From assembly GCA_049997875.1 (NCBI GenBank), contig JBEKRC010000001.1:108609-172608 (forward strand): a DNA stretch of 64,000 nt, written 5' to 3'. The position numbers and the translations under genes were made by a program. Positions 5,285 through 50,080 of the stretch are shown piece by piece. The notes beneath the pieces were generated by a model. That model was given only the letters and a program-made list of their open reading frames with translations, was not told where the DNA came from and ran no database searches. This DNA is from Minisyncoccia bacterium. Its GTDB lineage: Bacteria; Patescibacteriota; Minisyncoccia; UBA6257; 2-01-FULL-56-20. Within the stretch, counting starts at the first letter, position 1. Every line of letters starts with the position of its first letter.

Positions 5285-6687
5285 AACGCGATTACAAAAT
5301 AAAAAATAGTGCGCTCGCCGGCTGGGGGAGAAAAGAAATTGAAATGGCGGAAAAGGAAATGCCCGGACTCATGGCGCTCCGGAAGCGCTACGCCGCACGG
5401 AAGCCTCTCAAGGGCGTCCGGATCACGGGATCGCTCCATATGACGGTCCAAACAGCGGTGCTTATAGAAACGCTCGCAGCACTTGGCGCCAAGGTGCGCT
5501 GGTCAAGCTGCAACATTTTTTCCACGCAGGACCACGCGGCCGCGGCCATCGCAAAAACCGGTATCCCGGTCTTTGCTTGGAAAGGGGAAACGCTCGTGGA
5601 ATACTGGGAGTGCCTGGATCGCGCACTGGACTTCGGGAATGGCAAGGGACCGGACCTTATCGTGGACGATGGAGGCGACGCGACGCTTATGGTGCATCTG
5701 GGCGCGGAGGCGGAAAACGATCCCGCCATCCTCCGGGCACGGCGCGCAAACATGTCCGCCGACGAAATAGAACTCATAAAGCGGCTCAAAATAATTTATA
5801 AAAAGAATCCCACGCGCTGGACGAAAGCGGCGAAAAAGATACGGGGCGTTTCAGAAGAAACCACGACGGGCGTCCACCGCCTCTACGAGCGCCTCGCGCG
5901 GAACGAACTCCTATTCCCTGCGATCAACGTGAACGACTCCGTGACCAAGAGCAAGTTTGACAACATCTACGGCTGCCGCCATTCCCTGATTGACGGCCTG
6001 AACCGCGCGACCGACGTCATGATCGGCGGGAAAACCGCCGTCGTGTGCGGCTACGGGGACGTCGGCAAGGGATCGGCCCAATCGCTCCGCGGGCAGGGCT
6101 GCCGCGTGATCGTCACGGAAATTGATCCCATCTGCGCCCTGCAAGCGGCAATGGACGGCTATGAGGTCGCGGCCGTGGAAGACACATTGGGGAAAGCCGA
6201 CATCTACGTGACCGCTACCGGCGACAGGGATGTGATCACGCTGGAACACATGAAAAAAATGAAGGATCAGGCGATCGTGTGCAACATCGGCCACTTTGAG
6301 AACGAAGTACAGGTGGGCCGCCTCAATGCGGCGCGCGGCGTGAAAAAAGAAACCGTGAAACCGCAGGTGGATAAATATATTTTCTCCGACAAGCGCGAAA
6401 TATACGTTTTGGCCGAAGGGCGGCTCGTGAACCTCGGCTGCGCGACCGGCCATCCAAGCTTCGTCATGAGCAACAGTTTTTCAAACCAAGTGCTTGCACA
6501 GCTCGCCTTATGGAAAAATCGCTACGAGATCGGCGTGTACCGGCTACCGAAAGAAATTGACGAAGAAGTGGCCCGTCTTCATCTCGGGAAGATCGGCGCG
6601 AAACTTACCAAACTCACCAAGGCCCAAGCCGCCTATCTTAACGTCCCTCAAGGCGGCCCTTACAAGCCCGACTATTATCGTTATTAA
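5281..6687 (+). CDS. ahcY: S-adenosyl-L-homocysteine hydrolase (adenosylhomocysteinase)
   Basis: [28 protein letters not shown] and a [11 protein letters not shown]-binding motif; about 468 aa. Confidence 0.9.
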
Positions 6688-6694
6688 GACCGCG

Positions 6695-7372
6695 CTACAA
6701 AGACAAATTTGTCCCTACTTCAAGCAAATAAGGGTTGGATCCGCCGTCTTTCGTCGTCACATCGCCGCTCCCACCATTGGAAAATTTCCTGCTTTCCATG
6801 AACGCGCTAAGTTTAAAACTTGTGTTGCCCGGGATGTACCCGTAGAACAAGGCGCAGTTTGAGAGCGAAACCGACGAGCTTGCCGCATTGCAGTTGCCTG
6901 CTTGATTTATGGGATCGAGAGGCTCCTGCCCAAGAGGGGCTCCCGACGAGATGTTCGCAAGGTCGACTGGGACCCAGCCGCTCCCCGGATACGAAGGCGT
7001 TGACGTTGGAATGCCGATGGACCGAGTGGTGGTTGCCGTGGTACTCGCTGCCGTGCCGCCTGCCGTCAAGAACCAATCTTTGCAAAAAGTAGTGCCCGGA
7101 AACGTCCACATTCCCGTGCTGCTGACCGTGGAAAATGTAGAGGTGCCGATACTGATATAACAGGTGCCTGCCGAGCCGAGATTGGGAGTCGCCACGTCCG
7201 TGAGATAAAGCGCGACGGCGGTTCGCAGGGTCCCCATGTCGGAAATGCGATTGGAATCCCTTGCCTGACGCAATAATTCCGCGGGATTCAGGGCTAAAAT
7301 AATCACCACCGACAAGACCGCGATGATCGCGATGACAATTAAGAGTTCAATAAGGGTAAATCCTTTTTTCAT
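6695..7372 (-). CDS. Type IV pilin/pseudopilin with an N-terminal prepilin methylation motif
   Basis: MKKGFTLIELLIVIAIIAVLS is the canonical class III signal (G/FTLIE). The C-terminal part is rich in Thr, Ser and Gly. Confidence 0.8.
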   Translation of the reverse strand: MKKGFTLIELLIVIAIIAVLSVVIILALNPAELLRQARDSNRISDMGTLRTAVALYLTDVATPNLGSAGTCYISIGTSTFSTVSSTGMWTFPGTTFCKDWFLTAGGTAASTTATTTRSIGIPTSTPSYPGSGWVPVDLANISSGAPLGQEPLDPINQAGNCNAASSSVSLSNCALFYGYIPGNTSFKLSAFMESRKFSNGGSGDVTTKDGGSNPYLLEVGTNLSL

Positions 7373-10066: not shown

Positions 10067-11911
10067 TTACCGAAAGCTGAAGCCGCTCAGCATCTCATCG
10101 TAGATGCTATTATATTTATTGAAATCACCCGTTCCAAATACCGTTATGTCAAAATCGTATAAATTTGCTCCATGTGACCATACAGTCCCGATGGAACGGC
10201 ATGGCACGAAATCCCCAGAGTTCATAATCGGACAGCCAGCGCCGCCAGAATAAACCATCTCGTCCTCGAACTGCATGGCGTTGTTCCCAGCAACGGTCGT
10301 AGTTGATTCCATAAAGGATCTTTTTAAGGCCGTGTACACTTTCTGTTTCGACGAAATGTAAGTCGCAAGCGAGACCTGATATACACTCATGGTAAATTGC
10401 GCTCCCGAACTAGCCATTTCATCATCTGTCATCCCGCTTTCTTTGAAATAGGCGCAATCTGAACACATGGTACTGCCTCCAACATATTCTATTCCGGCGG
10501 GTAACCGAATCGCATAGCCGTACTGAGAGTTCTGGTACACCATTGTTATCGATGAGACAACTTTATCCATAACCTGATTCTCCGCGCTTAGTACGTCCGG
10601 GGCTGAATTAGGGGCATTAGGGATCAGGGTCGTTGCATACGTGATGCCAATAAGAAAAACAGATCTATCGGCTTGAAAAGCGGTGAATTTTAGATTGTCT
10701 TGATTTGTAATTGATATGGCGCGGGCAGGGTACCCGGCAAAGGTCGTGGTAGTCACTTCAATAGAATTTCCGGCATTCACGTAGGACGTAAGAAGTTTTT
10801 TTACGTAGGCTACCGCATCGTCAAGATTGTTCGTTGCGGACAAGGCCTCAATCAAGAGTACGGGATCGGAAGATTTCGGGATTACTTCTGAAAAGATGTA
10901 ATTATTTTGTGAATATAGCGGGGGCAGTACCACGGAAACTGATCCCAAAGAAGACGTTGCCGAACCAAGAAAAGTGGTTTGTCCGTCCCAGATCGATTGG
11001 TCGCTAAGATCATTATCAAGTTGTTGGATAAGTGCCGCGTCAGTCTCGCGAGGACCCGACACGACTATGTGCGTATAATTTAACGTACTGACGCTCCCCT
11101 GGCCACTAATAAGTGCAGTGGATAACGGAGCGGAAAAGAAAATAATAATGATGGAAATCAGAATTGGCGCAATTAGTCCGACGATGCCACTCCCGATAAA
11201 TAGTCCTTTCCCTTTATTTGCTTGCGCGCTAGTAAGATTTGGTTTCGCTGCTCTAAGGTTTTGATAAAGCACGTAAGAATAAACAATAGCAAACGATTGA
11301 AAAAGTACATCCAACAGGGCCGTTGCCACTGAGTGTGCAACGTTTCCTACTAATATTGCGACAGGGATCTGGATCGCAACGCCCACAAGGATCGTAAATA
11401 ACATAAGGAGTACGAATCTGCCTAGAATGGCCCACCAGTACCCTTCAACATACCCACGACTTTGCACCATGGCATTCATGCCGCGCTTTCCTTCGAGTAA
11501 AAGTGCATAAGTTGAAAATGCAATCCATATCGAAAATAAAATGCCCGGGATAATGAAAACAACAAAGCCCCCCATTACGACGAAGAGTATGAGAATGCCA
11601 AGCCATACGATGGGCCACAGCAATGCCAGCGCTTTTTTATAAGATTCCCACACGCCACTTTTTTCGTGGACAGCAAAGATGATTGCCGAAGATGCGACCA
11701 ATACTAATACACATGCACAGAGGCTTATTATCAAACCTAGAACAAAACCCCCGCCGTTTAGGTTGAGGAACATGCCTCCGATGAAAATTAGCATCAGAGG
11801 CAAAACAACAATGCCCGCGATATCCCAAAAACGATCTTTGTAGATTTGCCACGACGCCCGAAATAGTGAGGAAATTGGGTCTAGGCGAGGCAAGTTTTCG
11901 GGGACATCCAT
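10067..11911 (-). CDS. Hypothetical polytopic membrane protein with a large C-terminal extracytoplasmic domain (614 aa)
   Basis: The N-terminal 250 aa or so contain about 6 hydrophobic helices. The C-terminal region is Ser/Thr/Asn-rich with paired Cys residues. GC is visibly lower than in flanking genes. Confidence 0.6.
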   Translation of the reverse strand: MDVPENLPRLDPISSLFRASWQIYKDRFWDIAGIVVLPLMLIFIGGMFLNLNGGGFVLGLIISLCACVLVLVASSAIIFAVHEKSGVWESYKKALALLWPIVWLGILILFVVMGGFVVFIIPGILFSIWIAFSTYALLLEGKRGMNAMVQSRGYVEGYWWAILGRFVLLMLFTILVGVAIQIPVAILVGNVAHSVATALLDVLFQSFAIVYSYVLYQNLRAAKPNLTSAQANKGKGLFIGSGIVGLIAPILISIIIIFFSAPLSTALISGQGSVSTLNYTHIVVSGPRETDAALIQQLDNDLSDQSIWDGQTTFLGSATSSLGSVSVVLPPLYSQNNYIFSEVIPKSSDPVLLIEALSATNNLDDAVAYVKKLLTSYVNAGNSIEVTTTTFAGYPARAISITNQDNLKFTAFQADRSVFLIGITYATTLIPNAPNSAPDVLSAENQVMDKVVSSITMVYQNSQYGYAIRLPAGIEYVGGSTMCSDCAYFKESGMTDDEMASSGAQFTMSVYQVSLATYISSKQKVYTALKRSFMESTTTVAGNNAMQFEDEMVYSGGAGCPIMNSGDFVPCRSIGTVWSHGANLYDFDITVFGTGDFNKYNSIYDEMLSGFSFR

Positions 11912-12021
11912 TGCTTCTAGTATAACAAAAAATCCGGTGTCTTTTCTTTTTATAGAAGGTTCAATTCCAGTTAGGGGCTATGCTCTGCAAGCCCCATAAA
12001 ATATGACTTGAAAAATCTCCG

Positions 12022-12093
12022 GGTGCCTAACCGGGATTGAACCGGTATCGTTCCGGCCACAGCGGAAAGCTTTACCATTAAGCTATAGGCACC
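12022..12093 (-). tRNA. tRNA-His (anticodon GUG) with an encoded G-1:C73 pair
   Basis: The reverse complement folds as a cloverleaf: an 8-bp acceptor stem (GGTGCCTA/TAGGCACC) consistent with the His-specific G-1, a D arm GCT/AGC, an anticodon stem TTCCG/CGGAA with loop CUGUGGC, and a T arm ACCGG-TTCAATC-CCGGT. No CCA is encoded. Confidence 0.85.
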
Positions 12094-12387
12094 ATCAACT
12101 TTCTACACTCCTCATCATAATGATGTATCAGAAAATGGCAATTATGGCAAAGCCACGCCAAATCGCTTAGATTGTTGTTCTGCTTATTTTTGTCCATGTG
12201 ATGTACGGCAAGGATCCTAAAATCTTTTGTCCCACACAACTTGCAGATCGCAGCAACGCCGCCTCGTTAAATAATATTTCGATAAGAATTTTCACCGTGA
12301 ACAAATTTTGCAATTCACATACGGCATCGGAAGGAATTTTACCAAACAATCATTAAAAAAATATAAAATTTGTTATAATTAGTAGGC

Positions 12388-13002
12388 GTGAGTACTCTTG
12401 TCGCCGATATAGGGCTTCTCGCAAGCCAAAACCTCTTTTTGGCTTATTTTATTATCTACATCGCGACGATCTTCCTTGGGAACATTTCCGCATTCGCAAG
12501 CTTCTGGATCGTCTTCCAGGGATATTTCGGCATGTGGGGCGTTCCATTCCTTATTCTCACGATTTTCCTTGCCGATGTAACCGGCGACCTCCTTTGGTAT
12601 GCCTTGGGACGCGCGACGCGCGACACGAAGTTCGGGCGCTGGATCAAGCACCGCCTGCCATCATGGCACGGGAGAGTAGAAAGGGCATTTGAACGCAACG
12701 GCAAGCGGTGGATCATTCTGTCAAAATTTTTCTATGCATCGGCGTTCCCCGTCATCTTTTCCGCAGGGTGGAGCAGGATGGAATTCAAGAAATTCTTCCA
12801 CAATTCGGTGCTCTCCGTCGTGATCTGGCTTCCCATCCTCCTCGGCCTTTCCTACGGCCTCATCTCCGGCCTCGCGCCGCTCCGCGCCGTCGCCATATTC
12901 CGCAACTTTGAACTCGCCTTCTTCATCGGCCTTGTTCTCTTCCTTCTCTTGGATTATTTCATCGCGAAGTTCATCGAGAAGGCGTTCCGCAGGGAGGATT
13001 GA
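12388..13002 (+). CDS. DedA/VTT (SNARE-associated) family membrane protein
   Basis: 204 aa with multiple TM helices and a DedA-like topology and motifs (GDLLWYALGR...WIILSKFF). A TATAAT -10 element lies just upstream (about 12376-12381). Confidence 0.65.
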   Translation: MSTLVADIGLLASQNLFLAYFIIYIATIFLGNISAFASFWIVFQGYFGMWGVPFLILTIFLADVTGDLLWYALGRATRDTKFGRWIKHRLPSWHGRVERAFERNGKRWIILSKFFYASAFPVIFSAGWSRMEFKKFFHNSVLSVVIWLPILLGLSYGLISGLAPLRAVAIFRNFELAFFIGLVLFLLLDYFIAKFIEKAFRRED

Positions 13003-23287: not shown

Positions 23288-24559
23288 TTATATTATAGCG
23301 TCCTTTTCATCGTCGTCCTCCTCGGGAGCCGCGATCTGGTCCGTTTCCATCGTTCCCGCCACGCCGCCCTCCTGCGTTTCCTCGGGCCGCGACTGCGACC
23401 GCACGTCAATCTTCCATCCGGTAAGCTTCGCCGCGAGCCGCACATTCTGCCCGCCCTTTCCGATTGCCAAGCTCAGCTGGTTCTCCGGCACGTACGCGCG
23501 CGCTTCGCGCCGTGGAAGGATCTCCACTCTTTCCACTTTTGCCGGCGAGAGGGCGTTTGCAATAAACCTTTCCGGATCTTCCGACCATTCCGCGATGTCA
23601 ATTTTTTCGTTGCCCAACTCGTTGTTCACTGCCATCACGCGCGTCCCCCGCTGGCCAACCAGCGCGCCAACCGGATCAATCCCTTCTGCACTGGAAAACG
23701 CTGCCACTTTCGTGCGATTCCCCGGCTCACGCGCAATGGCTTTGATTTCAATCGCGCCTTCCGCAAGTTCCGGCACCTCCATGCGGAAAAGCTCGGTCAC
23801 GAACTTCGGATGCGAACGCGAAAGAATGATTCCCGGAAGCCGCGTGTCTTCCTGCACCGCAAGCACGAGGAAACGCAAGCGTTCACCGGAACGGTAATGC
23901 TCCGTAGGAATTGATTCGTTTGCAAACATCACGCCGACCGTCCGCCCAAGATCAATGAACACATTTCCCCGCTCAAACCGCTGCACAACGCCGCTCACGA
24001 TCTGGCCTTCCTTGCCGCGCCATTCGCTCAAGATTGAATCGCGCTCCGACTCGCGCAGCTTTTGCAGAATTACCTGCTTCGCCGTCTGAGCCGCAATTCT
24101 CCCGAAATCATCGTGCGTTTCAAGTTCAAACGTGATTTCGTCCCCAACCTGCGCTCCCTTCTTTATCTTCCGTGCCTCTTCTAAAGTAATGTGTCGCTCC
24201 GGATTGAACCGCGGGAGTTTTTCCTCTTCGGTCGTGGCTTCCTGGCCCGCGCGTCCTTTTTTCTCCTCCTTCTTTTCCTCTACTTTCTTCTCCTCCACTT
24301 TTTCTCCACCCTCTGCTTCTTCCGCGTCAGACACAAAACGCACGGTGTTTTCGTCAACCACCGTTTTCGTCTGCCAAAATTTCAGCTCGCCGGTCGCTTG
24401 ATCCAGCTTGCATTTTACGACCTCGCCGCGCTGGCCATACTCCCTTTTGTACGCTGCCGCAATGGACGCTTCAATAACCTCAAGAACATCCTCGGGCTTC
24501 AGTCCTTTTTCTTCCGCTACCTGCTTCAACGCTTTTGATAACTCCTTTATGTTAAGCAT
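23288..24559 (-). CDS. nusA: Transcription termination/antitermination factor NusA, with a K/E-rich insertion and an acidic C-terminus
   Basis: N-terminal NusA domain, an S1-like region and two KH regions ([21 protein letters not shown]; [20 protein letters not shown]); 423 aa. Confidence 0.85.
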
Positions 24560-24629
24560 TTCTTTAAAAAAGCCCGCTCACAAGCGGACCACGAATACCT
24601 CTCCATAGTATTCCCGCTCTTGCCGCCCG

Positions 24630-25028
24630 TCAAGGGCTAATATTCTCATAATGCCGGACGTCCGATACCTTGCCGTTGGAACTTATATCAATAGCAATAA
24701 GATCAATCCGCCATCCTTTTTCCTCGTCAATCAGCTCCGGATGCTGCCTTGCAAAAAATTCGCAGGTCCGGCTTATTTTCCTGAACTTTGCCGCCGTCAA
24801 ATTATCTTCTGGTGTAAGTGCAAACTGGTTAAACTCGCCGTAAACTTCTCCTGTCGCAAAAGATTTTACTTCGCAAAATACCAGAGTCCCATCCGGCGAC
24901 ATGGCGATAATATCAATTTCATCCGCCTTCCTACGATAATTTCGTTCTAATATTTCCCACTGGTTTTGAACAAGATATCCGCAAGCTATTTCCTCACCTG
25001 ATTTCCCAACTTCGCTTTTGTTTTTCAT
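24630..25028 (-). CDS. yraN: YraN-family (UPF0102) endonuclease-fold protein
   Basis: GEEIACGYL...GEIDIIA...LVFCEVK matches the UPF0102/YraN pattern; 132 aa. Confidence 0.75.
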   Translation of the reverse strand: MKNKSEVGKSGEEIACGYLVQNQWEILERNYRRKADEIDIIAMSPDGTLVFCEVKSFATGEVYGEFNQFALTPEDNLTAAKFRKISRTCEFFARQHPELIDEEKGWRIDLIAIDISSNGKVSDVRHYENISP

Positions 25029-25095
25029 AAATTTTTTAGAATTTTTTAATGGTAAATATGTTATGTTTTACCCACAAACATTAATAATTGGTTTT

Positions 25096-25551
25096 ATGAC
25101 AAACATCGAAGAAAATAGGCTAAGCTATGAATTTATCCGTGGCCTCATTGTCGGAGAGGGCTGTTTCACATTTTGCGGCGCAGGGATTGGTCCACAAAAA
25201 TCTAAGATTCCAACATTCGCTCTTGCTATGTCTGAAGTAGATAGTAATCTCATAACCTTAGTCAGAGACAGGCTTACGCTAAAAAATAAAGTCTATAATT
25301 ACGGCCCTAGGAAAAGCAAAGATCAGTATTCACGCATGGGAAGAGCCGTCTTAATGGTTAGAGATTTTGGACAACTAAAGAATGTGATTGTTCCACTTTG
25401 CTATAAAAAACTTCATGGAAATAAGGCGAAGCAATTTGAGGAATGGATGGAAAAAATTGGAAGCGAACCATATGTTCAGGAAAGCTACAGATTTATTTAT
25501 AAAATTTATAAAGCTGGATTTTATGAAAATATTCACAAATATGATTTTTAA
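25096..25551 (+). CDS. LAGLIDADG-family homing endonuclease (single-motif type), free-standing
   Basis: LSYEFIRGLIVGEGCF matches the LAGLIDADG consensus (LAGFIDGDGSF) at the expected distance from the N-terminus. A downstream basic helix region (VIVPLCYKKLHGNKAKQFEEW) resembles I-CreI-like enzymes. GC is about 30%, against about 57% in the flanks. The start was chosen at the internal ATG (MTNIEEN); the track ORF begins at 25018. Confidence 0.6.
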   Translation: MTNIEENRLSYEFIRGLIVGEGCFTFCGAGIGPQKSKIPTFALAMSEVDSNLITLVRDRLTLKNKVYNYGPRKSKDQYSRMGRAVLMVRDFGQLKNVIVPLCYKKLHGNKAKQFEEWMEKIGSEPYVQESYRFIYKIYKAGFYENIHKYDF

Positions 25552-25642
25552 TTTGTTCTCCGCGAAACAAGATTGTTAAACATTTTTGTTTGTCATGAGG
25601 AAAATTAAGCTTATCGGGTTATTTGATTAAATAATAATTAAT

Positions 25643-25790
25643 CTGGCAATGCGGCAAAATGCAATCCGGCAAGTAATCCGGCAAAAACCGGCAAAGATTC
25701 CGGCAAACAAAGATTAAATTTTTAATAATTGCCGGAAACAGGATTTGCACAGCATAGTAACATCGTTGAATTGCCGGATTAAAAGCCTGC
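25643..25790. repeat. Array of short CCGGCAA direct repeats (four full copies spaced 10-12 bp, plus degenerate copies) and two inverted TTGCCGG copies, immediately upstream of the DksA/TraR-like gene
   Basis: Read directly: ...TGGCAATGCGGCAAAATGCAATCCGGCAAGTAATCCGGCAAAAACCGGCAAAGATTCCGGCAAACAAAG...TTGCCGGAAACAGG...TTGCCGGATTAAAAG, followed by a TAGAAT -10-like element. Confidence 0.5.
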
Positions 25791-25799
25791 TAGAATGTT

Positions 25800-26138
25800 A
25801 TGACCATGGAAGCTAACCAACTTGAGAAGTATAAGAGGGAACTTGAGAAAGAGCGACTGCTCCTTCTCGCCGAGATCAAGCAAAACGAGCGGCCCGTTGA
25901 TTTTGGCAACGAAACGAATCGCCCCGAGGAAGAAACTGACGAGGTAGAGGAGATCGGCAATCAGATGGCGGTTGCCCAGGATCTGAAGAACCGCCTGGCA
26001 GAGATTGATGCCGCGCTTGCGAAAATCTACAACGGGAAATATGGTGCCTGCGAGCAGTGCGGTAGAACAATTGAGACTGCCGTGCTTGACGTAGACCCGG
26101 AATCCCGCTTCTGCAAGCATTGCAAATCAGGAAAATAA
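25800..26138 (+). CDS. DksA/TraR-family C4-type zinc-finger protein
   Basis: A coiled-coil N-terminal part and a C-terminal CEQCGRTIE...CKHC four-Cys zinc finger; 112 aa. Confidence 0.7.
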   Translation: MTMEANQLEKYKRELEKERLLLLAEIKQNERPVDFGNETNRPEEETDEVEEIGNQMAVAQDLKNRLAEIDAALAKIYNGKYGACEQCGRTIETAVLDVDPESRFCKHCKSGK

Positions 26139-26168
26139 TGCAAGGAACCTTTTATAAGTTTTTAATCG

Positions 26169-27728
26169 GTGGCATGGTATGAGTGGGGGGTGACCACCAA
26201 AAATCTTGCGAAGATTTATTCCGCGGAACTTGAGGGTATCAACGCCAAACTCATAGAAGTGGAGATTGACCTCAACGTCGGCCTTCATTCTTTCAATATC
26301 GTCGGCCTTGCCGACAAGGCACTCAATGAAGCGAAGGAGAGGGTCAACTCTGCGATCAAAAACTGTGGCGCGAAACCGCCGAACCGAGAGAACAGAAGGA
26401 TCACCATTAATCTCGCCCCTGCCGACATACAAAAAACGGGCTCGCACTATGATCTTGCGATCGCGCTCGGTTATTTGCTCGCAACAAAACAGATACAGAG
26501 AATTGAGACCGGTGATAAAGTTTTCGTCGGCGAGCTTGCGCTTGACGGCAGGCTGCGCCCCGTGAATGGCGCGCTCAACATTGCGCAAATGGCGCGCAAC
26601 ATGGGTTTCAAATATTTTTTTCTCCCGAAACAAAATGCGAATGAAGCATCGGCAATATGCGGGATAGAAATAGTTCCGCTGGAAAATCTCGGGGAGGCCA
26701 TCGCCATACTTGAAGGGCGGCAAACGAGCGGCGCGCAAAGTCCCGCCCCTTCCGATCCGCACAAAGAGAGAATTGAAACATTCCCCGATTTTTCAGAGGT
26801 CATAGGCCAAGAAAACGCAAAACGCGCGCTCGCGATCGCCGCGGCAGGCAATCACAACCTGCTTATGATCGGACCGCCCGGCGTAGGGAAAAGCATGCTC
26901 GCGCAAGCGCTCGCCGGCATTTTGCCGAAACTCACGGTCCCGGAAGCAATAGAGATCACGAAAATCTGGAGCGCGGCGGGACTGAGCCGCGGCCAGCTTA
27001 TCCGCCACCGACCGTTCCGCGCGCCGCACCAAACCGCATCAATCGCTGCGCTCATCGGCGGCGGCCAGGATCCGAAACCGGGCGAGATAAGCCTCGCGCA
27101 TCGCGGGGTGCTTTTCCTGGACGAACTTCCGGAGTTTCAGAAAAATCTTCTTGAAGCGTTGCGCGAACCAATGGAGGCGGGATCAATCCATGTCATGCGC
27201 GCAAAGCAAAGCTTCCTTTTCCCGGCGCGGTTCGCGCTCGTGGCCGCGATGAATCCGTGTCCCTGCGGCTATTACGGCGACGCGGAAAAAGAATGCAAAT
27301 GCGCCGCATACGAGGTGATTAAGTATCGGAAAAAAATTTCAGGCCCCCTCTTAGATCGCATCGATCTGCAAATCACGGTAGGGCGCATAAAGATAGGAGA
27401 ACTGCGGAAAGGGGACCGTGAGGGGCCCGCAAGCCCCGCGATCCGAGAGCGCATTGAAACGGCGCGGGACGTGCAGCGAGAACGGTTCAAGCGGCTCAAC
27501 ATCGCGACGAACGCCGAGATGAGTTCGCGGGAAACACGGCTGCTCATCCGCCTTGGGCCGCCCGCGGAAAAGTTTCTCACAACGCTTGAGAGAAGCCGCA
27601 TCTCCCCGCGCGGCTATTACCGCATCCTCAAGGTCGCACGGACGATTGCCGACCTTGAAGGAAGCGGCTGCGTCTCCGCAGAGCACGTCGCCGAAGCGTT
27701 CAGTTACCGCCTGCGGGAGGAAGTTTAA
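26169..27728 (+). CDS. comM: YifB/ComM-family Mg-chelatase-like AAA+ ATPase (competence-associated)
   Basis: N-terminal Lon-protease-like domain, Walker A IGPPGVGKSM, Walker B VLFLDELPEF, and C-terminal ChlI-like motifs; 519 aa. Confidence 0.85.
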   Translation: MAWYEWGVTTKNLAKIYSAELEGINAKLIEVEIDLNVGLHSFNIVGLADKALNEAKERVNSAIKNCGAKPPNRENRRITINLAPADIQKTGSHYDLAIALGYLLATKQIQRIETGDKVFVGELALDGRLRPVNGALNIAQMARNMGFKYFFLPKQNANEASAICGIEIVPLENLGEAIAILEGRQTSGAQSPAPSDPHKERIETFPDFSEVIGQENAKRALAIAAAGNHNLLMIGPPGVGKSMLAQALAGILPKLTVPEAIEITKIWSAAGLSRGQLIRHRPFRAPHQTASIAALIGGGQDPKPGEISLAHRGVLFLDELPEFQKNLLEALREPMEAGSIHVMRAKQSFLFPARFALVAAMNPCPCGYYGDAEKECKCAAYEVIKYRKKISGPLLDRIDLQITVGRIKIGELRKGDREGPASPAIRERIETARDVQRERFKRLNIATNAEMSSRETRLLIRLGPPAEKFLTTLERSRISPRGYYRILKVARTIADLEGSGCVSAEHVAEAFSYRLREEV

Positions 27729-39479: not shown

Positions 39480-40010
39480 ATGCAATTCCAGGTCCCGCAA
39501 TTTATAGATACGGAGGATAAGATCGTGGGGCCCTTGTCGCTCCGGCAATTCATTTACATCGGCATCGGCGCGGGCATCTCCGCCTTGCTTTATTTCATAC
39601 TCCAGACGTGGCTGTGGGCTATTCTTTCATTCTTCCTTGTGGGCGGCGCCATTGCGATCTCATTCGTAAAAATTGAAGGGAGGCCGCTTCCCAAAATCAT
39701 CCTCTCGGCATTCTCCTTCTATTGGAACCCGCAAACGTACGTGTGGCAGCCGGAACATCCGGCGGTCCAAAAGCATAAGACGCCCCCGGAAGCGAAGCCG
39801 ATCAAAAGCAGCGTTCTTGAGAAGATCGCCATGGGCATGGCGCTCCACAAGAGCTGGGAAAAGGTCCAGGTGGGGGTAAAACCGAAGGCAAAGGAGCCCC
39901 AGAAGAAGCCCCAGAAGAAGCTCAAAGAACAAAAAGTGAGCGGCCATTACGAGATCTTCCGAAAGCTCGCCGGCGACCGCGAAGCGGCGCGGAGAGTGGA
40001 CTACCGCTGA
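39480..40010 (+). CDS. PrgI/VirB3-like small membrane protein
   Basis: MQFQVPQFIDTEDKIVGPLSLRQFIYIGIGAGISALLYFIL plus a second TM helix fits the two-helix PrgI/VirB3-like architecture. It sits immediately upstream of the VirB4 homologue. Assignment is by architecture and position. Confidence 0.5.
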   Translation: MQFQVPQFIDTEDKIVGPLSLRQFIYIGIGAGISALLYFILQTWLWAILSFFLVGGAIAISFVKIEGRPLPKIILSAFSFYWNPQTYVWQPEHPAVQKHKTPPEAKPIKSSVLEKIAMGMALHKSWEKVQVGVKPKAKEPQKKPQKKLKEQKVSGHYEIFRKLAGDREAARRVDYR

Positions 40011-40032
40011 TAATGATGAGAAAATACAAACG

Positions 40033-40710
40033 ATGGCGTCAAAACAGGATCTTGGCAATTCCCTTGACCTTGTAAGCATCAAGGAGATCAGGAACAACAC
40101 GGCCATTCTTAAGGACGGCAGTATGCGGCAGGTCGTCCTTGTGGGCGGCGTGAACTTCGCGCTCAAATCGGAATCGGAACAAAATCTCCTCACGGGAGGG
40201 TACCAAAATTTTTTGAATGGCATTGAGTTCCCGCTGCAGATCGTGGTGCACTCGCGGAAGGTGAATATTGACAAATACGTGCAAGGGCTCCTCGCGCGGA
40301 AAGAGGCGGAACAAACCGCGCTGCTCCGGAGCCAGATTGACGAATACGTTGAATTCATAAAGGGATTTGTGGAAAAGAACGCGATTATGGAAAAGACGTT
40401 TCTTGTGGTCGTTCCTTTTTATCCACTGAGCATTGTGTCAACAAAAAAAGCCGTGGGCTTTCTCCCGTTCTTTAAAAAGAAACAGGACAAGGAGACGGAA
40501 ACAAAGGACGCAGCCGAGACCGAGCGCATCTTCCAGGAAAATCTGGCGCAGCTCATCCAGCGCACGAGCCAGATCACAACCGGGCTTCTCGGCATGGGGC
40601 TTGAGGCAACCGTCTTGAACGACGAAGCGCTCGCGGAACTTTTCTACAACTTCTACAATCCGCAGACCATTGAACGAAAGGATATGGCCCTGCCGAAAGA
40701 AGAAAAATGA
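40033..40710 (+). CDS. VirB4-family N-terminal domain (5' part of a split or frameshifted VirB4 gene)
   Basis: The 225-aa product ends 4 nt into the next ORF (ATGA overlap, different frame). The downstream ORF lacks roughly 200 aa N-terminal to its Walker A compared with full-length VirB4/TrbE proteins of about 800 aa. Confidence 0.45.
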   Translation: MASKQDLGNSLDLVSIKEIRNNTAILKDGSMRQVVLVGGVNFALKSESEQNLLTGGYQNFLNGIEFPLQIVVHSRKVNIDKYVQGLLARKEAEQTALLRSQIDEYVEFIKGFVEKNAIMEKTFLVVVPFYPLSIVSTKKAVGFLPFFKKKQDKETETKDAAETERIFQENLAQLIQRTSQITTGLLGMGLEATVLNDEALAELFYNFYNPQTIERKDMALPKEEK

Positions 40711-42446
40711 ACAATATGCCCGAGAATCACAATCAACTCAAAGATATAAAACAAATCATCGCGCCAGCGGGAGCGCAGGTGTTCCCCAACTACCTCAAAA
40801 TCGGCGACAAGGTTGCGAAGACCTTTTTTATACTTTCTTACCCCCGCTACCTTGCGACTGGCTGGTTTGAGCCGCTTATCAACCTCCCCAACCTTTTTGA
40901 CGTTTCCATTTTTGTAAATCCGATTGATACGGGCACGGCGCTCAAAAATCTCCGCAAGAAGGCCGGCCAGCTGGAGTCGCAGCTGAATGACGAGGAGGAC
41001 AAGGGTCTCGTGCGCAATCCGATGCTGGAGACCGCCATCAAAGACGTGGAGGGGTTGCGCGATTCCCTCCAGGAATCGCAGGAGAAACTTTTTGACACCG
41101 GCGTCTACATCACGATCTACGCGGACACCCAGGACGACCTCGTGCGGTTGGAGAGCAAGCTCGTGAGCATGATGGAAGCGAAGCTCATTTATCTGAAACC
41201 GGCGCTTTTTGAACAGCTGGAAGGGCTTTTCTCGGTCCTTCCGCTCAACGAGGACAAATTGCAGATATATACGCCGATGAACACAAGCCCGATTTCCTCT
41301 TTTTTCCCGTTCGTTTCGGAGGACCTCTCCTCAAATCAGGGAATTATGTACGGCATTAATTTGCACAACAGCAACCTCGTGATCTTTGACCGCTTTTCGC
41401 TGGAGAACGCGAACCAAGTGGTGTTCGCAAAATCCGGCTCCGGCAAGTCGTACACTACAAAACTGGAGATCATCCGCTCGCTCATGGCGGGCGTGGACAT
41501 GGTGATCGTGATTGACCCGGAGAACGAATATCAGCGACTCGCCGAAACCTTCGGCGGCAGCATGTTCAACATCTCGCTTTCGGCGCACGAGCACATCAAC
41601 CCGTTTGACCTCCCGCTCGTCCCCGAGGGTGAAACGCCGTCCGACGTCCTCCGGTCGCACATTGTGACGCTCGCGAGTTTGATCAAGCTTATGTTGGGGA
41701 AAATCACCCCCGAAGAGGACGCTATCCTTGACCGCGCGATCACGGAAACCTACGCCTCGCGCGAAATCGTCGTTGGATTGGATTTCGCGGGAAAAGAACC
41801 GCCACTTCTGGGAGACCTCGCCACCGTTCTTCGCAACCTTGAGGGGGGCAGGGGCATGTCGGAGAAACTCTACAAATACACCGAAGGAAGCTTCGCGGGG
41901 CTCCTGAACCAGCCGACCAACATTGACGTCAATAACCGCCTCATCGTCTTCTCCATCCGCGACCTTGAGGAAGAGCTGCGTCCCATCGGGATGTTCGTCG
42001 TCCTCAACTTCATCTGGAGCCTGATCCGCGCGAAACTCGCAAAGCGGCTGCTCTTCATTGACGAGGCGTGGATCATGATGAAGAATGACGACTCGGCCAC
42101 GTTCCTTTTCGGCCTCGTGAAACGCGCACGGAAATATTTTCTCGGCGTTTCCACGATCACGCAGGACGTGGAGGACTTCCTGCGCTCTCCCTACGGGCGT
42201 CCCATCATCACGAATTCATCTCTGCAAATGCTTTTGAAGCAGGCACCGGCGACGATTGACATCGTGGCGAAAGCGTTCGACCTTACGGATGCGGAAAAGA
42301 ACTTCCTTTTGAGCGCGGAGGTGGGTACCGGAATCTTCTTTGCCGGCAAGCGCCATGTCGCGATCCAGATCGTGCCGTCTTATTTTGAAGACCAGATTAT
42401 CACCACGAATCCGGAGCAGCTATTGGAGGAGAAAAAAGACCTGTAA
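40707..42446 (+). CDS. VirB4/TrbE/CagE-family type IV secretion ATPase (C-terminal ATPase part)
   Basis: Walker A VVFAKSGSGKSYTTK, Walker B RLLFIDEAWIMM, and flanking VirB4-like conserved blocks (NSNLVIFDRF; HINPFDL; GVSTITQDVEDF). Confidence 0.8.
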   Translation: MNNMPENHNQLKDIKQIIAPAGAQVFPNYLKIGDKVAKTFFILSYPRYLATGWFEPLINLPNLFDVSIFVNPIDTGTALKNLRKKAGQLESQLNDEEDKGLVRNPMLETAIKDVEGLRDSLQESQEKLFDTGVYITIYADTQDDLVRLESKLVSMMEAKLIYLKPALFEQLEGLFSVLPLNEDKLQIYTPMNTSPISSFFPFVSEDLSSNQGIMYGINLHNSNLVIFDRFSLENANQVVFAKSGSGKSYTTKLEIIRSLMAGVDMVIVIDPENEYQRLAETFGGSMFNISLSAHEHINPFDLPLVPEGETPSDVLRSHIVTLASLIKLMLGKITPEEDAILDRAITETYASREIVVGLDFAGKEPPLLGDLATVLRNLEGGRGMSEKLYKYTEGSFAGLLNQPTNIDVNNRLIVFSIRDLEEELRPIGMFVVLNFIWSLIRAKLAKRLLFIDEAWIMMKNDDSATFLFGLVKRARKYFLGVSTITQDVEDFLRSPYGRPIITNSSLQMLLKQAPATIDIVAKAFDLTDAEKNFLLSAEVGTGIFFAGKRHVAIQIVPSYFEDQIITTNPEQLLEEKKDL

Positions 42447-47506: not shown

Positions 47507-48877
47507 TTGATAATGAACAACAATATGGATCTCGAAAAACTTTGGCAATCAACATTGGGAGAGATGGAGATCCAGCTCACAAAGGCGAACTTCTCGATGT
47601 GGCTCAGGGGCAGCAAGCCTATAGAACGCGAAGAGGGCACTTTGTACGTCACCCTGCCGAATAATTTCGCCAAATCCTGGGTTGAGGACAAGTACCGAAA
47701 AAATATCCTTGGGATATTGCGCAATATGGACAGCTCAATCAAAAAAGTGGAGTTCGTCATAGGCCAGCAGGCGCCCGTACCCCAAAAGAGCATGGCGGGC
47801 ACAAACGACCTTGCTACGCTTGTTCCGGCAGAATTGGATTTCAATAAGGCAGACCCTGAAACCAATTTAAACCCCCGCTATACCTTCTCCACGTTTGTGG
47901 TGGGGCCCTCCAACGAACTTGCGTGCACCGCGGGGAAGTCCATCGCGGAGCATATCGGAAAATATAATCCGTTTTTTGTGTACGGCGGCGTGGGAATCGG
48001 GAAAACGCACCTCATCCAGGCGATCGGCAACGAGATCGTCGCGAGGAACGGGAAGAGGGTGAAGCCGAAATATGTCCCCTCTGAGCAGTACACCCGCGAA
48101 GTGGTGTGGGGATTGCGCAACGACCGGATCGAAAGTGTGAAGAAAAAATACCGCGACGTTGACGTGCTCATCATAGACGATATCCAATTTATTGGCGGGA
48201 AGGAAAAAACCGAAGAGGAGTTCTTCCACACCTTCAACGCGCTGTACGAAGGAGGTAAACAAATTATCATCTCTTCCGATCGGCCCCCGCAGTCCCTCCC
48301 TACGCTTGAGGAGCGCCTGCGGTCCCGTTTTGAGGGTGGTTTCGTCGCGGACATCGGCTACCCGGAATACGAGATGCGAGTGGCCATCGTCCGGAGCAAG
48401 CTTTCGGAGGCGAACCGCAGCCTTGACGAAGACATCATTGACCTCCTCGCGCGCCGCCTCAGGAAAAATATCCGCGAGCTTGAGGGAATATTAAAAAAGT
48501 TGCTTTTCCTTCAGGAACAAAAAGGGGTTGAAATCACAAAAACGTTTGTAGAGGAAATCATAGAAAAATCGACCAAGAACGTTTCGAAGCGGGTGAGCGA
48601 TGCCCAAATACTGAAGGCGGTCGCCGAATTCTTCGGCGTTTCCCTTGAGGACATCATAAGCCACAACCGCAGAAAGGAGGTGGTAGAGCCGCGCCAGATC
48701 GCCATGTACCTACTTCGGGAAATCTCGGAGCTTTCCTACCCATATATTGGGGAGAAAATGGGGAGAGACCACACCACCGCCATCCACTCCTATGAAAAAA
48801 TCAACCAGGAAATCAACAGAAGCGCCATACTTAACCAAAAGATATTAACAATCAAAGATATGATTTATAAAGGCTGA
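47507..48877 (+). CDS. dnaA: Chromosomal replication initiator protein DnaA
   Basis: N-terminal domain, AAA+ Walker [11 protein letters not shown], Walker [10 protein letters not shown], and the C-terminal DNA-binding helix-turn-helix ([27 protein letters not shown]). An alternative start at 47525 (MDLEKLW) is possible. Confidence 0.9.
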
Positions 48878-48967: not shown

Positions 48968-50080
48968 ATGAAATTTATCGCAATACGATCAAACATCAAA
49001 GAAGCCGTTTCCACAATCGAGCGCGCCGCCGGCGAGAACGCAAACCTTCCTATTTTAAAAAACGCGCTTATCACGGTTGGAAGCGACGGGATTGTTTTTG
49101 CCGCGACAAACCTTGAGATCGCGATTACCTGTCGCGTGTCCGGAAAGGTGATTGAGGGCGGAAGCGTTTCCGTACCGCTCGCACCCTTCGCGAGCCTCAT
49201 CACCAATCTCCAAAGCGACCGTTTGAATTTCAGCAAGAAGGGCAACGCGCTTGAGGTAAAAACGGACAACTACAGCGCCGTGCTGCAGGGATTACCCAGT
49301 GAAGATTTCCCCATAACCCCCCAGATAAAAACCTCTGACGAGTACTTTGCTATAACGGGTGCGCTTTTTAAGGAGGCGATTCAGCAAGTCGCCGTAGCGG
49401 CGCAACCGTCCGATTTCCGGCCGGAGCTTAATGCCGCCCTTTTTGACTTTTCCTTGGACAACCTCAAACTTACGGTAACCGACGGTTTCCGGCTTGCCGA
49501 AAAGACAATCCCGCAGAACCTTTTTACCGCAAAATTTAAGGAAGCGTTTAGAATGCTCATTCCTCTTAAGACCAGCCAAGAGGTGCTTCGGATGGTGAGC
49601 GATACCGAAACCGTGCGGGTGTTTCGTGACGAGAACCAGATTCTTGTGAAGACCGAGCGCGCCGAACTTATCTCGCGGCTCGGCGAAGGGAACTTCCCGG
49701 ATTATTCGCAACTTGTGCCCAAAAAATTCGCTACCGAAGCAGTTGTGTCGCGCGAGGAACTTGCGAACGCGGTGAAGCTTGCTGCGATATTCGGGCAAAA
49801 AAACAGCGAAGTGAAACTGGCGATGCACCCGGGGAAGAAAGCGGTGGAGATAAGTTCGGCGGACCAATCGCTCGGTGAGAACGCCTATCTTCTCCCCGCG
49901 AAAATAAAGGGGGCGGCGGCCGAGGCGTTCTTTAACTGGCGTTACCTCGTGGACCCCGTCAAAGCGATGAAAACGGAAGAAATTTTTATAGGGCTCCAAG
50001 AAGAGACCAACCCGGCCCTTCTCCGGCCGGTGGGCGACAGTTCTTATTTCTATATTTTAAAGCCCATCCTAAAGTCTTAG
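48968..50080 (+). CDS. dnaN: DNA polymerase III beta subunit (sliding clamp)
   Basis: 370 aa. The three-domain clamp pattern begins MKFIAIRSNIKEAVSTIERAAGEN...LPILKNALI. Confidence 0.9.
   Translation: MKFIAIRSNIKEAVSTIERAAGENANLPILKNALITVGSDGIVFAATNLEIAITCRVSGKVIEGGSVSVPLAPFASLITNLQSDRLNFSKKGNALEVKTDNYSAVLQGLPSEDFPITPQIKTSDEYFAITGALFKEAIQQVAVAAQPSDFRPELNAALFDFSLDNLKLTVTDGFRLAEKTIPQNLFTAKFKEAFRMLIPLKTSQEVLRMVSDTETVRVFRDENQILVKTERAELISRLGEGNFPDYSQLVPKKFATEAVVSREELANAVKLAAIFGQKNSEVKLAMHPGKKAVEISSADQSLGENAYLLPAKIKGAAAEAFFNWRYLVDPVKAMKTEEIFIGLQEETNPALLRPVGDSSYFYILKPILKS

Follow-up and report, generated by a model that had tools for sequence, protein, structure and literature searches.

The 64,000-nucleotide window analysed here (positions 108,609 to 172,608 of contig JBEKRC010000001.1, assembly GCA_049997875.1, from a Minisyncoccia bacterium) carries a small gene of the LAGLIDADG endonuclease family between yraN and a DksA/TraR-like gene. 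The endonuclease open reading frame (ORF) occupies 25096–25551 on the plus strand and encodes 151 amino acids plus a stop codon without a break. A mechanical ORF listing gave 25018–25551; the ATG at 25096 was chosen as fitting the family alignment, and an alternative ATG lies upstream at 25063. The product is 100% identical to the deposited hypothetical protein ABSE18_00690 from a metagenome-assembled genome of a Minisyncoccia bacterium, a Parcubacteria-type member of the candidate phyla radiation (CPR) of ultra-small bacteria. The window contains a single copy of the gene.

Family, profile and fold evidence together make a strong case that the protein belongs to LAGLIDADG_1 (PF00961), and they show a single domain and bear out the I-CreI-like layout that a preliminary description had read from the letters of the sequence. 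The LAGLIDADG motif FIRGLIVGEGCF (residues 13–24; 25132–25167, plus strand) includes IRGLIVGEG at residues 14–22 and aligns with GFTSGEGCF, the second motif of I-OnuI, in the C-terminal domain of that enzyme. A single-sequence search of the PDB returned a weak match to the same I-OnuI domain (E = 0.007). A first search collected 44 relatives at 40–85% identity; 41 of them match PF00961 (best 1.5e-11), and a profile built from all 44 retrieved solved LAGLIDADG endonucleases from the PDB at E = 1.4e-19. The Pfam comparison suggested with the preliminary description was thus positive for the relatives, although not for the window protein by itself. An AlphaFold (AF2) model on the alignment of the 44 relatives scored 92.2 in the predicted local distance difference test (pLDDT) and has the alpha-beta-beta-alpha-beta-beta-alpha core of the fold: helix 11–21, strands 22–29 and 36–46, helix 47–59, strands 66–69 and 83–88, helix 91–102. 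All of the 50 best Foldseek matches in the PDB are LAGLIDADG proteins (probability 1.00), including bI3 maturase, I-OnuI, the single-domain I-TnaI and I-AniI. In the family alignment, which has a mean column identity of 52%, G20, E21 and G22 are nearly invariant. Glu21 (codon 25156–25158, plus strand) is the putative catalytic residue; an acidic residue (Glu or Asp) is found at this catalytic position, the eighth of the motif, in 124 of 128 members, and Arg or Lys in three. Because the chain has one domain, the protein would need to act as a homodimer, as we infer from its single-domain length.

The surrounding DNA is the lowest in GC content of the entire window. The gap between yraN and the DksA-like gene (25029–25800) has 34.3% GC, compared with 55.2% and 54.6% in the 5-kb flanks. 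Over all 771-bp segments of the 64 kb, the mean GC fraction is 0.534 (standard deviation 0.041); the minimum of 0.3385 starts at 24907, and the segment starting at 25029 has 0.344. A low-GC islet had been described at this position, and as the window minimum it stands, but the figure of about 30% was slightly low, and the drop described as abrupt is gradual on the left because yraN itself has 42.9% GC. By part, GC amounts to 17.9% in the spacer between yraN and the ORF (25029–25095), 36.0% in the ORF and 35.9% in the non-coding stretch downstream. The comparison of GC and codon positions that had been proposed upheld the contrast: the ORF's GC (0.360) and third-position GC (GC3, 0.322) lie 4.7 and 4.2 standard deviations below the 46 other ORFs of the window (mean GC3 of the other genes 0.63 versus 0.32, z = −4.2).

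Both neighbouring genes are intact. The UPF0102 gene yraN (24630–25028, minus strand), which specifies a PD-(D/E)xK nuclease of 132 amino acids, matches the full length of PF02021 (2.3e-19, model positions 1–80 of 80). Leaving the endonuclease aside, it is the window's most AT-rich ORF (GC3 of 0.41), as it is in two related loci, L007 and L008 (the latter without the endonuclease gene), but not in L002 or L087; this composition may have been left by an earlier transfer of yraN together with the endonuclease cassette. The DksA/TraR-like zinc-finger gene (25800–26138, plus strand, 112 amino acids) scores 3.7e-17 against NCBIfam DksA_like and 3.7e-4 against zf-dskA_traR, neither of which reaches the curated cut-off. 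Downstream of it lies comM (26169–27728, plus strand), encoding a Mg-chelatase-like helicase (PF01078 1.4e-92, PF13541 3.1e-40, PF13335 2.8e-25). An Rfam scan of 24300–26300, group I and II introns included, found nothing at E ≤ 1 save one chance match. Since no intron matched and the flanking genes are intact, the endonuclease gene is free-standing and not housed in an intron or intein, in agreement with what had been proposed from the sequence. The whole window has only three tRNA genes.

Fixed site and patchy presence among relatives

Relatives were collected through exact-protein look-up and a ComM scan of species-representative genomes. Both L007 and L008 come from metagenome MFD03726, and OY970175.1, OY970382.1, OY970354.1 and OY970126.1 are complete chromosomes of relatives. 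A profile search found at least 829 clusters (90% identity) at E ≤ 1e-5. The best 120 clusters all have 137–175 amino acids and come from Liptonbacteria, Niyogibacteria and other Parcubacteria; on this sequence evidence, the family is confined to Parcubacteria/Liptonbacteria-type CPR bacteria. Some homologues have already been annotated automatically as 'LAGLIDADG family homing endonuclease'. The position of the gene is strikingly constant: in 15 of 15 independent genomic contexts it adjoins yraN in divergent orientation, 34–105 bp away, including five contexts (L089, L094, L095, L096 and L101) with different genes beyond the pair.

Presence at this site is nevertheless patchy. The preliminary description had allowed for the gene being carried by all relatives; 13 of 22 related loci lack it, namely L008 and 12 more with the same yraN–dksA–comM synteny. 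On a tree of NusA and ComM, carriers and non-carriers interleave. The window and L007 carry the gene and the close relative L008 (NusA 94%) does not; L005 and L015 carry it and L010 and L018 do not; L091 is a carrier and L009 is not, and the same is true of L121 and L022, respectively. In an alignment, the final 15 nt of the endonuclease ORF are still there in L008, which has therefore probably lost the gene. With the exception of that ORF end, a relaxed tblastn search with 128 queries from the family for decayed copies in 15 empty loci found nothing better than E = 0.05: copies of the endonuclease gene are either intact or gone. Next to the polymorphism, DNA identity between the window and L008 is 0.52–0.64 over the adjoining ~200 bp (yraN 5′ end and spacer) versus about 0.88 elsewhere, and the window and L007 are 0.94–0.97 identical over the same 5′ end and spacer. 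The drop in L008 is consistent with what recombination or co-conversion would leave.

The gene also has a history different from that of its hosts, as judged from neighbour-joining trees and identity comparisons. L002 and L087 are 91% identical in NusA and 85% in ComM, but only 51% in their endonucleases. The L087 endonuclease shares 72% identity with its counterparts in L015 and L121; for NusA, the identity of L087 to these two is only 72–73%. For L015 and L109 the values are 81% for NusA and 53% for the endonucleases. Taken together, the identities of endonuclease and NusA are weakly correlated (r = 0.43). This tree conflict indicates that the gene has moved between lineages. Its base composition is persistently foreign to its hosts, with GC fractions of 0.33–0.42 across hosts whose locus GC ranges from 0.32 to 0.57.

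In the window genome, the gene is an old resident common to sister species. L007, from a sister species, has it at the same site with 85% amino-acid identity, and the synonymous divergence (dS) of the pair, 0.56, falls within the 0.34–0.75 of neighbouring host genes. The shared site and the host-like dS place the gene in the common ancestor of the window genome and L007, so it is not a recent arrival. The earlier suggestion of a recently acquired selfish element thus holds in one half: presence and absence at a fixed site and the tree conflict fit selfish, site-specific behaviour, but the divergence from L007 speaks against recency, as does the restriction of the whole family to this clade and site. 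The ratio of nonsynonymous to synonymous divergence (dN/dS) is 0.149 for the endonuclease genes of the window and L007 and 0.034 for those of L005 and L015, values that indicate purifying selection on the coding sequence. The comM ratios for pairs with the window were disregarded as an alignment-frame artefact.

Further copies were sought in metagenomes and viruses. A 37-nt pattern from the window, intended for near-identical strains, had no match in metagenome contigs, and a 20-nt pattern of the L005 clade found 10 further loci of the same architecture plus 8 chance matches. A phage vector was considered and rejected: viral contigs in IMG/VR yielded three distant LAGLIDADG matches only, none of them close.

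Repeats in the yraN–comM control region

The DNA around the endonuclease gene is an unusually elaborate control region that is conserved, non-coding and furnished with four classes of repeated boxes. A recent preprint (bioRxiv 10.1101/2024.02.06.579203) identifies YraN as a single-strand endonuclease required for natural transformation that interacts and co-evolves with the ComM helicase, and this partnership makes the yraN–dksA gap the shared control region of a transformation nuclease–helicase pair. In every relative with yraN, the dksA-like gene and comM, the gap measures 370–900 bp and has 29–42% GC, with or without the endonuclease gene. The gap of the gene-less L008 is 401 bp long (30.7% GC) and ~90% identical to window positions 25537–25799. 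Because this gene-less relative carries the matching region, the last 248 bp of the islet (25552–25799), about a third, are host sequence. The low-GC islet is a composite of the endonuclease gene and a conserved host repeat region, and the earlier picture of one foreign insert is not supported.

The first class of repeats consists of palindromes upstream of yraN. Relatives have arrays of 1–7 near-perfect 16–24-bp TGTTT-N6-AAACA palindromes there (up to 7, e.g. in L011) that are almost absent elsewhere in the 8–15-kb loci. Such arrays lie at 5810–6150 in L011, 5972–6290 in L024, 6097–6250 in L025, 5762–5935 in L018 and 3492–4085 in L093. Each species has its own central 6 bp (AGCGCT, CGCGCG, GTCGAC or GCCGGC), as in the variants TGTTTAGCGCTAAACA, TGTTTCGCGCGAAACA, TGTTTGTCGACAAACA and TGTTTGCCGGCAAACA. 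The array follows yraN, because in L017, where yraN is inverted, it is still upstream of that gene; where a locus has yraN but lacks dksA and comM, the endonuclease gene is likewise flanked by palindromes. A palindrome scan of the window found degenerate copies. The yraN–endonuclease spacer has two degenerate TGTTT..AAACA palindromes: ATGTTTTACCCACAAACAT (25063–25081) and GGTTTTATGACAAACA (25090–25105), which overlaps the endonuclease start codon. A third degenerate palindrome, the 16-bp TGTTCTCCGCGAAACA (25554–25569), begins 2 nt past the stop codon, where intact copies are arrayed in relatives. The ORF takes up almost exactly the spacer between two palindromes: its ATG directly adjoins an AAAC arm in about 8 of 13 loci, and in about 9 of 14 a TGTTT arm starts no more than 12 nt past the stop codon. 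Intact palindromes were seen in 9 of 13 empty loci versus 1 of 9 in the first set of carriers. A simple model in which palindromes are the target and are lost in carriers was not retained, as this trend is weakened by the later carriers L093 and L103, which have perfect flanking copies.

The arms TGTTT and AAACA agree with the chromosomal parS consensus TGTTNCACGTGAAACA, a 16-bp palindrome (PMC7022226), but the central 6 bp differ from it and vary by species. The window palindrome TGTTCTCCGCGAAACA is the best match to the parS consensus in the 64 kb, with 3 mismatches, and the array is origin-proximal, ~21 kb from the origin region. No plausible ORF of the 64-kb window has a ParB-like GERR motif. 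The 5-6-5 geometry also suits operators of the CRP/FNR type.

Three further repeat classes lie downstream of the ORF. An everted repeat, GTTAAACA-TTTT-TGTTTGTCA (25575–25595), is conserved across relatives, where its general form is GACAAACA-N4-6-TGTTTGTC. It is followed by the conserved box GCTTATCGGGTT (25609–25620), which is single in the window, forms part of a clade-wide box (A)ATGTAGGTTTTTCAAGCTTATCGGGTTTT and is kept in relatives with and without the endonuclease gene. The ~30-nt non-coding box (A)ATGTAGGTTTTTCAAGCTTATCGGGTTTT (25605–25622 in the window, about 4005–4045 in L005) has been conserved between species that share only ~65% identity in ComM; some loci have two copies (at 7037 and 7110 in L109, at 1700 and 1770 in L016) and has no Rfam match. 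Finally, six (C/G/T)(C/T)GGCAA boxes at ~11-bp spacing and two inverted TTGCCGG boxes are located upstream of the DksA-like gene (25643–25777). Four of the 11 plus-orientation CCGGCAA sequences of the 64 kb sit at 25666–25700, and TTGCCGG occurs at 25729 and 25771. The array of CGGCAA type is conserved in the gene-less L008 (6467–6600), and arrays of 6–10 boxes with ~11-bp phasing in both orientations are also found in L005 (4060–4215) and L121 (about 11700–11860). Box sequence varies by lineage (CCGGCAA, ATCGGCAAT, CCTGCAAT or GCGGCAA), as if the boxes were evolving in concert with a binding protein. The window as a whole thus has degenerate or single versions of the palindrome, everted repeat and conserved box, together with a complete CCGGCAA array. 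The yraN ORF of L017 has a CCGGCAA cluster within it (6355–6395), and one relative, L016, has an extra high-GC ORF of 254 amino acids between the endonuclease and DksA-like genes (about 1930–2700).

Conventional expression signals were not apparent: 24800–25900 has no consensus sigma-70 promoters or intrinsic terminators. Three nucleotides separate the end of a TAGAAT hexamer (within 25789–25808) from the first ATG of the DksA-like gene. Another ATG follows 6 nt further on, and the DksA-like transcript may begin there, without a leader. The small DksA-like gene is fused into the comM operon, and the divergent yraN/comM layout around one control region is conserved in the clade.

Homing, domestication and other explanations

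On balance, the gene is probably a free-standing, single-domain, site-specific LAGLIDADG homing endonuclease gene that circulates within this clade and has one fixed home upstream of yraN. Under such a scheme, the enzyme would act as a homodimer and cleave a ~20-bp palindromic or pseudo-palindromic site in gene-less alleles. The cleavage site would most plausibly lie in the TGTTT-N6-AAACA array, a palindromic target being one that would suit a homodimeric enzyme, or at the yraN-proximal edge. The gene would then be moved in or out by recombinational repair off a gene-bearing copy, or by homologous cassette replacement after DNA uptake.

Several observations weigh against homing. The window protein alone had no match in Pfam, NCBIfam or PHROG scans. 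Gene-less loci such as L008 do exist among the relatives, where a search for an empty site had been proposed, but a clean empty site or precise insertion junction was not found in three carrier/empty comparisons; gene-less alleles hold about 150 bp of alternative sequence that blurs the boundaries, and no target can be read from them. Carriers L016, L093 and L103 keep perfect palindromes on both sides of the gene, which is awkward if the palindromes are the target. Co-divergence with the host in the sister pair and host-like constraint would also suit a useful resident gene. Finally, a subclade (P0034, P0035 and the L015 copy) has Lys or Arg at the catalytic position, and yet the Arg/Lys pair L005 and L015 is the very one with a dN/dS of 0.034.

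The main rival is domestication, which we consider rather unlikely. It holds that the protein is a LAGLIDADG-fold DNA-binding regulator or architectural factor that acts at the palindrome array and at the divergent promoters of yraN and dksA–comM and is retained for its use to the cell, its nuclease activity being reduced or irrelevant. Purifying selection as strong as that on host genes, even in the subclade with a catalytically dead site, and host co-divergence in sister pairs would be expected of such a factor, as would the strict linkage to yraN through rearrangements on both sides. The fit of the ORF to an inter-palindrome spacer means that its expression and any autoregulation would run through the boxes, the mean column identity of the family implies one conserved DNA partner, and the 15 empty loci revealed no pseudogenes. 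Against this, the gene is dispensable, being absent from more than half of the related loci, L008 among them; its tree conflicts with that of the hosts; the catalytic Glu or Asp is retained in nearly all members; and base composition never adjusts to the host. Homing and co-option could both be true, in different branches.

It is quite improbable that the gene is a decaying relic, once mobile and now functionless and awaiting deletion. The flanking palindromes are degenerate in the window and L007, leaving no obvious target in this lineage, and L008 has probably lost the gene; but no family-invariant residue is missing from the unbroken ORF, and the dN/dS of the window–L007 pair implies continued constraint. 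Import of the whole 770-bp low-GC block from outside the lineage in recent times is very improbable and already largely refuted: although the gene falls more than 4 standard deviations short of host genes in both GC and GC3 and no stretch of the window is lower in GC than this block, L007 carries the gene at the same place with host-like dS, the 248 bp downstream of the ORF are about 90% conserved in L008, which lacks the gene, equivalent AT-rich gaps of 370–900 bp occur in all relatives, and viral contigs yielded no close relatives.

A more elaborate version of the homing hypothesis is speculative, and we regard it as unlikely in its entirety. It proposes that the family is specialised on the palindrome array controlling yraN, whose units would be both target and landing pad; that gain and clean loss proceed through transformation-driven cassette replacement; that expression is tied to competence; and that nuclease-dead SKG and SRG variants are first steps towards array-binding regulators. 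If it is true, cassette replacement during transformation would gain or lose the gene cleanly and so explain why copies are intact or wholly absent, and the location of the gene in the divergent yraN/dksA–comM promoter region would tie its expression to competence. The gene would then encode a selfish nuclease that resides within the DNA-uptake recombination machinery of its host and takes its timing from it.

Related systems and other features of the window

No published description of the yraN-linked LAGLIDADG family was found in the literature searched. In its mode of action, the window protein would be closest to homodimeric enzymes such as I-CreI, I-TnaI and I-ShaI. The homodimers I-CreI, I-CeuI, I-MsoI and I-TnaI have one motif per chain and the same alpha-beta-beta-alpha-beta-beta-alpha fold, and I-TnaI (5gkk) matches the model over the full length with a template-modelling (TM) score of 0.56–0.57. 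The targets of these enzymes are palindromic or pseudo-palindromic and about 22 bp long. They differ from the window protein in being intron-encoded in rRNA genes, and they share only ~20% identity with it. The Seg and Mob genes of T-even phages are free-standing genes for GIY-YIG or HNH endonucleases that spread by 'intronless homing' during phage co-infection. They likewise sit between conserved genes, are sporadic among relatives and have flanking sequence that differs between carriers and non-carriers; the window enzyme, however, is of the LAGLIDADG type and resides in a cellular chromosome. Loss of nuclease function also has precedents in this fold. WhiA is a nuclease-dead LAGLIDADG derivative, and the nuclease-dead bI3 maturase (PDB 2ab5) is the top fold match; within the yraN-linked family, the SKG/SRG subclade is without the catalytic acid yet conserved. 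Unlike WhiA and bI3 maturase, the window protein retains its catalytic Glu, has no intron to mature and has no added helix-turn-helix domain.

Closest in host range are I-ShaI and I-KazI, single-domain LAGLIDADG_1 enzymes from CPR rRNA-gene insertions, of which I-ShaI is homodimeric and cuts its own insertion site (PMC11270868). They share the host superphylum, the Pfam family and the single LAGLIDADG domain with the yraN-linked family, but are found inside 16S/23S rRNA genes, often in introns, and have ~180 amino acids, whereas the yraN-linked proteins are free-standing, intergenic and about 140–165 amino acids long. Free-standing intergenic LAGLIDADG ORFs are also known from fungal and algal organelle genomes (PMC5726470, PMC8393795), but without a fixed neighbour gene or repeat array.

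The CPR LAGLIDADG enzymes described so far reside in rRNA-gene insertions, and the yraN-linked family is separate from them, large, and made up of very small enzymes (about 150 amino acids). It offers a natural system for the persistence of an intron-less homing endonuclease in cellular chromosomes of organisms that probably exchange DNA mainly by uptake. Its many compact, related scaffolds, probably with a conserved palindromic target, are also of interest for meganuclease engineering.

An AT-rich region with repeats could also be a replication origin (oriC), and this interpretation of the stretch downstream of the endonuclease ORF was rejected. The genes dnaA (47507–48877) and dnaN (48968–50080) are 21 kb away, the skew switches near 46 kb, and 25552–25799 has no DnaA box at up to 1 mismatch. 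On the plus strand, the GC3 skew stays below zero to the left and right of 25 kb and rises above it only past about 46 kb, and the replication origin is probably at about 46–47.5 kb. The segment 46196–50080 holds yidC (minus strand), dnaA and dnaN, and the region upstream of dnaA is not AT-rich (54.6% GC). Elsewhere in the window, genes for a PrgI-family protein and a TraG-type P-loop ATPase on the plus strand (39480–42446) suggest a type IV secretion or conjugation-like cluster. The second lowest-GC stretch, 11605–12572 (<42% over 771 bp), is a divergent intergenic region with a tRNA gene (12022–12092, minus strand).

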